This document shows positions 44,101 through 47,100 of a stretch of 64,000 nt of DNA, piece by piece. The stretch's first letter is position 1. The number at the start of each line of letters is the position of its first letter. Below the pieces are notes generated by a model, which searched no databases, was not told where the DNA came from, and was given only the letters and a program-made list of their open reading frames with translations. The stretch lies in NCBI GenBank assembly GCA_001816455.1, contig MHCB01000038.1, positions 7,965 to 71,964 of the forward strand, in the 5' to 3' direction. Made by a program: the position numbers and the translations under genes. This DNA is from Candidatus Blackburnbacteria bacterium RIFCSPHIGHO2_12_FULL_44_25 (GTDB lineage: Bacteria; Patescibacteriota; Microgenomatia; UBA8517; UBA10165).

Positions 44101-47100
44101 GAGCGGGGTAAATGTTTCTAGTTCTGGGCAGGATGCGTTTGCAACTGGAATATCTTCAGCAGCAGTAGCTGACGGTGTTAGTACTGGGGGGACTCCATCG
44201 CAAGTAGTTGAGCTTGCACAGTTGGCTGCTAACGCCCTGGTTGAGAGATTGGATGCTGCCGCTAGTCGGTTTACAGATCCAGTCCTCGCAAAACAATATC
44301 TTGAAAACTCGGTGACCGAGTTTGCACAATTTGTAGTAAGACAGAATTTCGAGTTAGGAGCAGCCCGTGGCCTTTATGGACCGGAAGCTCTTAAACAAGC
44401 ATCTACTACTTTAGTTGGTGGAACGGTTGTTAACGGGAAGTTGTTGGCCGTGAGTTACGGGGATTCGTATATTTACATTTTACGTGATGGAAAACTTATA
44501 AAAGTTAATGAACAAGTTAAGGAATATCTGGGCTATAACGAACCTAATCTTGTGTCTGTAATCATCCATGACCTGCAGATCGGTGACCGTGTTATATTTG
44601 CATCAGATGGGTTTGTGAGCTTCATATCAGACAACGCCAGAGGAAAGATAGTTAAGGCAGCTGGTTCAACGAATGATCCTCAAGTTTTTGCATTACGTGC
44701 CCAGGAGATTCTTAGAGATTACTACAGAGAGAAGGGTGTGGGTGATGATGTAACTATTGGATCATTGTTCTACGGGGACTTAGATGTAAAACCAGGTTTG
44801 TTAGACGGTTTGTTTGACAGGGTTCCAGCGGCCAGAAGTTTTTACATATCCAAGACAGATGTACAAGCAAGTACCTTGAGTATTCATGCTAGAAACAGCG
44901 CTGGAGATATTGTTGAGACAAGGCTTAGTGTGGAAGAAGTTATACATCGTGGAGCATCGAGTTTGGGGGACAAGTTTACAGATGGGGCAAAAAAACAGGT
45001 GTTGTTGGAACTTAGAGGTAAGGGTGTTCCCCAATCAACATTAGATGAAATTAGCAGGGAATTGAAGAGAATTAAGAAACCGGAAGATGTAAGAAGTAAA
45101 TTAGTAAAGTTTACTGGCATACCCGTTTTGGGAGAGCCAACGGCTGTTTCTGGGGGAGTTTTCAAGAGTCTTGGATTAACTTTCCCTTGGTCTGAGAAGA
45201 AATTTGTTGTGGAAAAACTAGAAGGTGACCAGGGCTTTGCTGGAATAAGAGTAACGGCTCGAGACGCGAACGGAGTTGAAAGAAAGATCATCATTGACCC
45301 AAGCAATGTTGACGGGAGTTACCAATATCCAGCCAACGGATTTGATTACAAACTTGATGAATTAAGAGAGCTGGGAGTTGACGAAAGGACTATCCAACAA
45401 ATAGATAAGCAGCTTGAGAGGATGGCAAAGAAGTCGGTGTTCGATAAAACACCTGTTGGGCAAGTCGGAGGAAGTCCGTTTGCGCCAGCTAATGATGTAG
45501 CGCAGCAAACAGATGACGTTTGCAAGGTTTTGGGGGCATCGACTGACAGTGTTTTAGGGACAAGTACGACCGGCGGTTGCCAAAAGCCGTCTCTTTTTGA
45601 TCTGTTAAATCCGTTCAACAAAATTCAACCTGCGAGTAAGATTGACGATGTTGTTACAGTAGTTACATCTCCAGAGGAAACAAAAGCTATTGCAAGTAGG
45701 TTGATTAAAACGGAAGAGTCGACGGTTAAGATGGGCGATTTCTCTTTGTCTACAATTAAGGGTGATGATCCGACAAACGATGGTTTGATATTCTATCTAA
45801 AGCCCGGGCAAAATCTTCCCAAAAATGTAGTAATTACGGACAAGAGCGGAAATGTTGTCGACCTTGGCAAACGAGACACCCCCCTGCTTTTTAGTGATGT
45901 GAGAAAGATTGAGATTGATGGGACGGATTATAGCCTCGCGCATGATATTTGGCAGAACCCTATGTTGTTTGAGATTAGAGGTAGCTCGAAAGACGCGAAG
46001 TTTGATGAGGTTATTGGAGATATTACAGAGATTTGGGATACGGCAATAAAAAGTCCACGGCGAATGGATGCTGTCTTGGCAAAAAATTTCACAGGCGAGG
46101 AGATTTCTGCAATGAAAAAGATAACTGATTTTTACGCACAAGATCCAAACATTGGGGGACTAACTGCGCCGTACGATCTCGACACCGTTGTGGAGTTACC
46201 TGACGACAAGTTGGCAGAATATCTTAACCGCACTCTTCCTTTTCGGCAGGTTCGAGAATCAGATATTTCGGTGTTTACTGGTTTAATATCAGCTCTTAAG
46301 GAGGGAAGGGCTTTTACTGAAAAAGAAGCAGACATGTTCTCTGCGCTTGAGTTTAGACATGTGGTGGCTACGAGGAATGTGTATCGGGGACTTGATGAAG
46401 TGTATATTACTGAATTTAACAGGCAATTTGCACTTGCGAACATGGCTGAGGCGGTACTTTCTACGAGATTGGTATCTAAAAAACCTTTCAAAGAACACGC
46501 GAAACATTATGGGGATTTTGTTGAGTTGATGCAAAGCCGGGGAGTTGAGGTCCCAGAATGGGTTACACCTTTTAATTCAGACGATTTTAGGTATGGTATT
46601 AAGACAGATGGGACTAAGGCAAATGCAGCAGGTCAGTATTTTGTTTCAAGACTTGAAGATTTTGATTCCATGGCTCAGGTATTGGACCATGAACGGGTAC
46701 ATGGACTGTCTAAGGTGGCATACAACAGAAATGTGGAGTTTAAAATTCGTAACAAATTAGACGTTGAGTATGACCGAGGTTTTGCGAGCGATGAAGGGTA
46801 TACAGATGCTCTCGCCTATTTGATAAAAAGTGGAGGTGATGTTGATAAAGCTATTGCCGAAAACGCAAAGTCAACTTCTAGTTATCGGTTGGCTTCAGAT
46901 GAGATACTTCGGGTGGCTAAGGAGGTTGGTGCTGCTTCGGGAGATGAGATGCTGGGTGTAGAGTTGTTGTTTAGGGGGATAACGGATCGAGCGAATAGTT
47001 CTGTTAACAGGAGTCTTGTACCAATTCAAAGATATTATGACGAGAAAGTTGCAGATAGTGGGGCGAAATTTGAGGAAAGAATGGCACGGTTTTCAGATAA

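Follow-up and report, generated by a model that had tools for sequence, protein, structure and literature searches.

A very divergent PP2C-type phosphatase domain predicted within a giant J domain protein of Candidatus Blackburnbacteria

The DNA analysed here, a 64,000-nucleotide (nt) stretch of contig MHCB01000038.1 (referred to as the window), originates from Candidatus Blackburnbacteria of the Microgenomates group (Patescibacteria, or candidate phyla radiation, CPR) and harbours a single uninterrupted open reading frame (ORF) coding for a giant protein of 3553 amino acids (aa). This protein (OGY10250.1; UniRef100_A0A1G1V7H1, A0A1G1V7H1) is known publicly either as a "hypothetical protein" or as a "J domain-containing protein". 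A preliminary description of the same DNA ascribed to it a PP2C/SpoIIE-type phosphatase core, citing three short PP2C-like peptides. The question raised by this locus is whether such a core is real, whether it is likely to work, and on which side of the membrane it would do so.

Identification of the PP2C domain

All three peptides were found in frame within the ORF of the giant protein, as listed below.

38108..48769, forward strand: giant ORF of 10.66 kb, 3553 aa, which hosts the PP2C domain
44090..44785, forward strand: predicted full PP2C/PPM catalytic domain, aa ~1995-2226
44405-44497, forward strand: TTLVGGTVVNGKLLAVSYGDSYIYILRDGKL, aa 2100-2130, PP2C motifs 4-6
44567-44623, forward strand: HDLQIGDRVIFASDGFVSF, aa 2154-2172, PP2C motif 8
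44741-44776, forward strand: GDDVTIGSLFYG, aa 2212-2223, PP2C motif 11

Family searches confirmed the flagged stretch as a genuine, very divergent PP2C-type phosphatase domain and, by sequence and predicted fold, as a member of the PPM/PP2C superfamily. When the domain was excised (aa 1965-2264), the Pfam family PP2C_2 (PF13672) was matched with an E-value of 1.4e-6 and 28.5 bits, above the gathering score of 24. The two families suggested beforehand gave less: PF00481 produced no match with the domain, and the SpoIIE family PF07228 reached 17 bits, below its threshold of 25. The NCBIfam model Stp1_PP2C_phos was matched with an E-value of 3.4e-7, far under its equivalog cut-off, as expected of a distant relative judged by sequence. 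The proposal of a phosphatase core is also upheld by a profile built from five divergent subfamily members alone, with no typical PP2C included. When this profile was compared with all PDB sequences, 39 matches were obtained, every one of them a PP2C-family protein (E-values of 1.3e-10 for PstP, 1.3e-8 for tPphA, 4e-8 for Stp1 and 1.9e-7 for SpoIIE), while hhalign against a typical PP2C returned a probability of 96%. The predicted structure likewise displays the alpha-beta-beta-alpha sandwich of PP2C enzymes. Hence, although a Pfam scan of the whole 3553-aa protein reported only the J domain and no PP2C family, the idea that three short motifs came to resemble PP2C by chance in a long, compositionally biased protein can be set aside as next to impossible, given the significant family and profile E-values, the specificity of the PDB match list and the matching fold.

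The extent of the domain differs from the one first proposed. The span 44380-44800 is located inside the giant ORF; it takes in only the C-terminal two thirds of the domain (motifs 4-11), the start of the domain being at about nt 44090. The N-terminal metal-binding motif, described earlier as not obvious, is found at nt 44120-44191 in the form of SSGQDAF (containing D2009) and AVADGVSTGG (D2022, G2023), the Asp of motif 1 and the Asp-Gly of motif 2 thus preceding the flagged start by 70-95 residues.

With aa 1982-2241 as the query, HMMER was run exhaustively against 1.84 billion cluster representatives and yielded only 12 proteins at E <= 1e-3, including four specific relatives:

P0001: 356 aa, 36% identical
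P0002: 281 aa
P0003: giant protein of 3098 aa
P0005: giant protein of 4742 aa

PF07228 is the best Pfam family for both P0001 (33.9 bits) and P0002 (35.7 bits), each above threshold, and P0001 additionally exceeds the threshold of Pfam PP2C (PF00481); the PP2C domain of P0005 is assigned to PF13672 with an E-value of 3e-12, above threshold. Among the other matches, P0012 is a fragment of 134 aa that scores above the SpoIIE threshold, and six are typical PP2Cs with the motifs NED, DGMGG, TTL, GDSR, CSDGL and DN. The last, P0004, was discarded as a PP2C relative: it is a PAS-domain protein aligned over residues 136-177 of the query only.

The subfamily, the members of which are 27-33% identical to the domain under study in the subfamily-only alignment, is very rare, with about five clusters at 50% identity among the 1.84 billion representatives, two of the others being giant envelope proteins (3,098 and 4,742 residues). 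A word-indexed homologue search gave no match with the domain and only P0002 plus one 231-aa protein with the subfamily profile. Genome and metagenome scans with the domain, with an alignment of the domain and P0001, and with the conserved N-terminal alignment found no confirmed relative. In the protein's own 90% cluster, the PP2C domain of the 15 members listed is either identical or missing with its region, so these sequences add no information on conservation.

The metal site and the proposed activity

Residue equivalences were taken from the HMMER alignment to tPphA (2J82).

44132..44134, forward strand: motif 1 Asp D2009 (GQD), equivalent to tPphA D18, invariant in both alignments
44171..44176, forward strand: motif 2 D2022-G2023 (AVADG), equivalent to tPphA D34-G35, invariant in both alignments
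44462..44464, forward strand: motif 5 Asp D2119 (YGDS), equivalent to tPphA D119, the third-metal ligand
44504..44554, forward strand: truncated flap between beta7 and beta8, aa 2133-2149, a coil of ~17 residues according to DSSP of the model
44606..44608, forward strand: motif 8 Asp D2167 (ASDG), equivalent to tPphA D193, invariant in both alignments
44744..44749, forward strand: motif 11 D2213-D2214 (GDDV), D2213 equivalent to tPphA D231 and invariant in both alignments, a "DD" rather than a "DN" form

The aspartates of motifs 1, 2, 8 and 11 are family-defining residues of bacterial PP2Cs (PMC12088040), and the third-metal role of Asp119 has been described for tPphA (PMC3517971). In the subfamily-only alignment just 17 columns are invariant, and these include D2009, D2022, G2023, D2167 and D2213 (alignment columns D28, D41, G42, D186 and D232). 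Since the four core aspartates and the glycine have been retained among relatives only 27-33% identical, with so few invariant columns in all, the metal site appears to be under selection. The third-metal Asp is kept by four of the five members and replaced by Asn in P0002. The "DD" of motif 11, which marks bacterial PP2C groups IV/V (PMC12088040), is invariant across the subfamily. Such a ligand pattern argues for a working metal centre. The earlier suggestion that the domain may be degenerate or regulatory for want of the N-terminal metal motif is wrong, the motif-1 Asp and the motif-2 Asp-Gly being present and shared by all five divergent members. The domain is a mosaic, with the typical trinuclear ligand set placed on a SpoIIE-like minimal scaffold.

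It is therefore fairly probable, as judged from these residues, that aa ~1995-2226 constitute a compact metal-dependent PPM/PP2C phosphoprotein phosphatase domain which would be catalytically competent, most likely as a Mn/Mg-dependent enzyme. D2009, D2022, G2023, D2167 and D2213 would bind two Mn2+/Mg2+ ions and a third would be held by D2119 together with D2167, so that the phospho-Ser/Thr ester of a protein substrate could be attacked by a metal-bridged hydroxide, as in PstP, tPphA and Stp1. Because the flap is cut to ~17 residues and the phosphate-clamping Arg is absent, the choice of substrate is probably set less within the domain than from outside it, by tethering in the 3553-aa envelope-associated protein and by the neighbouring modules. 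About 100 residues following the PP2C domain are co-conserved in P0001.

A number of observations weigh against this proposal, apart from the silence of the whole-protein Pfam scan and the sub-threshold score with PF07228. The domain is without the flap, which takes part in substrate and third-metal binding. The phosphate-binding Arg (tPphA R13, PstP R20, PP2Calpha R33) has no counterpart, as the aligned position falls in VNVSSSGQD, which contains neither Arg nor Lys, and no such Arg is conserved in the subfamily. The DGxGG motif is degraded to DGVSTGG (DG[VAG][SE] in the subfamily). The structure model is not independent of the sequence evidence, since the alignment behind it held typical PP2Cs. 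Finally, neither a kinase nor a STAS/anti-sigma partner was found among the 30 ORFs of the window that were scanned.

Two other kinds of chemistry have to be weighed. The better of them, which we regard as improbable, is that of a pseudophosphatase, in which the PP2C fold would serve as a non-catalytic binding or scaffold module, as in TAB1 or the C-terminal domain of RssB; the invariance of the metal-binding core described above and the retention of the third-metal Asp in four of five members both speak against it. Still less probable is a phosphodiester hydrolase on a PP2C scaffold, removing AMP, phosphocholine or a similar group in the manner of Legionella SidD and Lem3. SidD also lacks the phosphate-clamping Arg, and its authors relate this loss to diester chemistry (PMC3656104). 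However, D2167 preserves the motif-8 Asp (tPphA D193) that SidD has lost, the model shows neither the extra beta-strands nor the stalk of SidD, and the absence of the Arg may not be diagnostic, as the short-flap phosphatases SpoIIE and RsbX might lack it as well.

The giant protein, its neighbourhood and the membrane side of the domain

Seven contigs, drawn from independent assemblies at JGI, NCBI and ENA, code for the identical protein, and the giant gene is therefore not an assembly chimera. Other features of the protein and of its surroundings are as follows.

37281..38111, forward strand: upstream gene, fn3 / purple-acid-phosphatase-N-like, the stop of which overlaps the start of the giant gene
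38108..38206, forward strand: signal-peptide-like or anchor segment MRVFLKKAGVIFLVFVNFISPLYPVVWITPVRA, aa 1-33, by hydropathy
38555..40207, forward strand: Cys-rich presumed ectodomain (40 Cys in aa 1-700), conserved in P0003
41231..41311, forward strand: Gly/Ala-rich hydrophobic segment LAFVAGANVAIAIAAEAGAGRIVGWGVG, aa 1042-1068, conserved and present in P0003 too
43139..43306, forward strand: J domain with intact HPD, aa 1678-1733, ~260 residues upstream of the PP2C domain
46688-46702, forward strand: HExxH motif HERVH, aa 2861-2865, in an unannotated stretch of ~600 aa
47678..48766, forward strand: conserved C-terminal region, aa 3191-3553, with two "GWNLV...GKGYFV" modules
48779..49984, forward strand: downstream fn3 / Big_13 surface-protein gene, third member of the cassette

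The first 33 residues would act as a signal peptide or an anchor. A Pro/Glu-rich low-complexity linker (aa ~40-130) is located ahead of the Cys-rich region, which contains three GGCC-x-D-x-DC...EC...NGAC repeats at aa ~365-500; the N-terminal Cys-rich part is 33-44% identical to that of P0003. The ~900 residues after the Gly/Ala-rich segment are rich in Glu, Lys, Arg, Gln and Ala, coiled-coil-like, and contain the J domain, the sole domain in public annotation. It matches Pfam DnaJ (PF00226) with an E-value of 5e-16 and 58.9 bits (cut-off 27.8), carries WHPDV and matches J domains of the PDB. P0003, an ortholog-like giant, has the PP2C domain but lacks the J domain, hence the pairing of the two is not obligatory.

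The ~1000 residues that follow the PP2C domain showed no recognisable family in Pfam, NCBIfam, PHROGs and PDB sequence searches, and scans with PHROGs, NCBIfam and Pfam over ten overlapping 500-aa segments of the giant protein revealed nothing beyond the J and PP2C domains. Weak matches to PAS (PF13426) and picornavirus VP4 were taken as chance, and those to tape-measure and SMC proteins as coiled-coil noise. HERVH finds no support as a metalloprotease motif, as no family or PDB sequence match was found across aa 2560-3190 and it is not conserved in P0003. A tandem repeat of two ~95-aa modules after the PP2C domain was unsupported by BLASTP; against P0003, only short pieces of the two modules could be aligned, to a single region. 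No tandem DNA repeats were found in the giant gene.

The C-terminal modules, of ~85 aa each (aa ~3380-3553, nt ~48250-48766, forward strand), match no Pfam family. They are common to P0003 and to a Big_5 surface-type protein, P0028, in which each module possesses a Cys pair that has been lost here. An AF2 (AlphaFold2) model of the C-terminal region, made from three sequences, was poor, with an overall pLDDT (predicted local distance difference test) of 56.5 and ~80 locally, and Foldseek against the PDB gave nothing with an E-value below 0.001.

The topology of the protein hinges on the Gly/Ala-rich segment, which could either span the membrane as a weak helix or insert into a membrane in the manner of a fusion peptide. 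We give about an even chance to an arrangement in which the Cys-rich N-terminal ~1000 residues are secreted, aa 1042-1068 cross the membrane, and the coiled-coil, J and PP2C parts are cytoplasmic. The phosphatase would then act locally, at the envelope or an attachment site, on the cell's own phosphoproteins, with the J domain bringing in DnaK. J domains cooperate with Hsp70 and ATP, and the intact HPD of this one counts for a cytoplasmic placement. The same placement is favoured by the charges flanking the Gly/Ala-rich segment, acidic on its N-terminal and basic on its C-terminal side, by the Cys-rich sequence ending well ahead of the hydrophobic segment in all three giants, and by P0005, in which PP2C and VanY domains stand on either side of a plausible membrane segment. 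The layout of the latter protein is given below; a LysM-M23 peptidase gene and a gene for a 3139-aa Laminin_G protein are found near its gene.

P0005 (L005 5001-19229, 4742 aa): PP2C at aa 3219-3380, hydrophobic segment at aa 3454-3472, VanY / M15 peptidoglycan peptidase at aa 3964-4050

Against a cytoplasmic placement stands, first of all, the weakness of the segment itself (Kyte-Doolittle 1.71; Hessa-scale sum +4.5 kcal/mol). With expected Cys counts taken from the other ORFs of the window, aa 701-3553 (2853 residues) contain 3 Cys where ~25 would be expected (P 5e-8), and aa 2226-3553 contain 2 instead of 11.5 (P 8e-4). Such depletion after aa 700 is a pattern typical of exported proteins. 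Besides, all five subfamily members have Ala, Thr or Val where typical PP2Cs have the Cys of the CSDG motif, the stretch from the PP2C domain to the surface-type C-terminal modules contains no further hydrophobic segment, those modules are shared with the Big_5 protein, and both flanking genes encode fn3-type surface proteins.

Most of these points are accommodated by the possible, yet less likely, alternative that everything beyond the signal peptide is extracytoplasmic, with the Gly/Ala-rich segment inserting into a membrane instead of acting as a stop-transfer anchor. In this case the PP2C and J domains would act on the surface of, or inside, a host cell, dephosphorylating its proteins and hijacking its Hsp70. 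The exclusion of Cys, the weak and solitary hydrophobic segment, the modules common to the Big_5 protein and the secreted-type fn3 genes flanking the giant gene in a conserved cassette all favour such export. Moreover, giant membrane proteins of CPR bacteria are thought to mediate host attachment (PMC8080830), and effectors with a PP2C fold do exist (SidD and Lem3). On the other hand, domain and segment scans of the whole protein detected no known translocation, secretion or autoprocessing domain, and the hydrophobic segment between the PP2C and VanY domains of P0005 weighs against export. It also counts against the idea that no bacterial J domain is known to have an extracellular role.

A more elaborate version, in which an episymbiotic CPR bacterium would use the giant as a delivery protein to bring several effectors to its host, seems rather unlikely. 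By means of a Cys-rich adhesion head and the fusion-peptide-like segment, a Cys-free cargo would reach the surface or the interior of the host cell, this cargo being the coiled-coil stalk, the J domain capturing host Hsp70 and the minimal PP2C, which would erase Ser/Thr phosphorylation or a phosphodiester modification of the host. The bacterium itself, uncultured and ultra-small, is presumably episymbiotic and probably host-dependent.

The giant gene and its two fn3-encoding neighbours form a three-gene cassette that is found in the same order around P0003 (L004 5264-16099, on a 469-kb contig). A phage or plasmid origin was rejected, for the window contains housekeeping genes (phenylalanyl- and threonyl-tRNA synthetases PheRS and ThrRS, IF3, trigger factor, Mur ligase) and nine tRNA genes scattered over it. 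The forward-strand ORFs at 11108-11773 and 61953-62408 are IS200-like Y1 transposase-like paralogues, 41% identical over 129 aa (E-value 2e-29). ORFs of up to 755 aa without a Pfam match (E <= 0.001) are present on the reverse strand at 31071-33338, 25165-26280, 23255-23956, 26483-27139 and 27340-27966. The region 33339-35053 (1.7 kb) contains only ORFs of at most 148 aa on both strands and no Rfam match at gathering thresholds.

The enzyme class is well known and the chemistry of the phosphatase ordinary; it is the architecture that is unusual. The public labels miss the phosphatase altogether, and as whole-protein Pfam scans overlook it too, divergent catalytic domains in giant CPR proteins need to be sought with sub-fragments. 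The combination of a phosphatase and a J domain in a giant envelope protein suggests phospho-signalling or chaperone recruitment at a cell-cell interface, whereas export of the domain would suggest host manipulation; should the domain act at or across the interface between symbiont and host, this setting may prove important. To our knowledge, there is almost no experimental knowledge of phospho-signalling or host manipulation in Microgenomates, and the delivery protein, if true, would provide the first enzymatic host-manipulation module identified in this group.

Comparison with known systems

As a whole, the protein resembles the giants of CPR and other ultra-small predatory or episymbiotic bacteria (Vampirococcus, and the giant genes of Omnitrophota) in its multi-kilobase gene carried by a small genome, in its N-terminal anchor and in its large unannotated stretches with very divergent enzymatic domains, revealed by sub-fragment searches or structure prediction alone. 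It is, however, smaller than those giants and has few or no internal membrane segments. Another parallel is offered by TopJ of the Mycoplasma terminal (attachment) organelle, where a wall-poor bacterium attached to its host also joins a J domain to long non-globular sequence. The J domain of the giant protein is matched by NCBIfam TopJ models with E-values of ~1e-9 to 1e-8, far below the equivalog cut-off, but the likeness is confined to this domain and a PP2C domain is absent from TopJ; the analogy in function is offered as a lead only. The pairing described here was not met in the literature consulted: the Vampirococcus paper (PMC8080830) contains no occurrence of "phosphatase" and reports neither a PP2C nor a J domain in its giants, the Omnitrophota giant-gene preprint likewise reports neither domain and has no occurrence of "DnaJ", the lone "phosphatase" of its main text being fructose 1,6-bisphosphatase, and DnaJ is not mentioned in a 2025 survey of bacterial PP2C domain architectures (PMC12088040).

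With regard to the domain proper, Legionella SidD (a de-AMPylase) and Lem3 (a phosphocholine hydrolase) are remote. The full typical ligand set is kept here, which brings the domain much closer to true phosphatases, and with SidD it has only the absence of the Arg in common, showing neither the loss of the motif-8 Asp nor the additional strands and stalk.

Typical bacterial PP2Cs, such as PstP of M. tuberculosis, MspP, Stp1/STP of Streptococcus and Staphylococcus, tPphA and PppA, share the motif-5 third-metal Asp (D2119) with the domain (groups I-III of PMC12088040), at 14-27% identity. They differ from it in several respects. Their two-helix flap subdomain of ~40 residues between beta7 and beta8 corresponds to the ~17-residue coil, so that the flap is here at least ~22 residues shorter (PstP has a 22-residue insertion relative to the subfamily profile at this position). 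They carry the phosphate-binding Arg and have DG[MH]GG and DN in place of DGVSTGG and DD. A typical PP2C is an enzyme of ~240 aa, whereas this domain is in the middle of a 3553-aa chain; in PstP the cytoplasmic PP2C domain is N-terminal and followed by a single membrane segment, unlike the order seen here.

The SpoIIE / RsbX / RsbU type (PF07228) shares the short flap, since SpoIIE has 15 residues between beta7 and beta8 and its flap has been called "diminished" (PMC3517971). The "DD" of motif 11 is likewise of the group IV/V type, and in SpoIIE, too, the PP2C domain is attached to a large membrane-associated protein. On the other hand, SpoIIE has Ser699 at the motif-5 position where an Asp is retained here, and neither a STAS partner-switching substrate (30 ORFs of the window scanned for a partner) nor a SpoIIE-type N-terminal regulatory domain was seen. 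As the domain lacks the flap, the Arg and the DN of the PstP/tPphA/Stp1 type, stays below the PF07228 threshold and does not have the Ser-for-Asp replacement of SpoIIE, it is best classed as a minimal and very rare branch of its own, which unites features otherwise split between the two types: the full trinuclear ligand set of the typical enzymes and the flapless, "DD"-bearing scaffold of SpoIIE.

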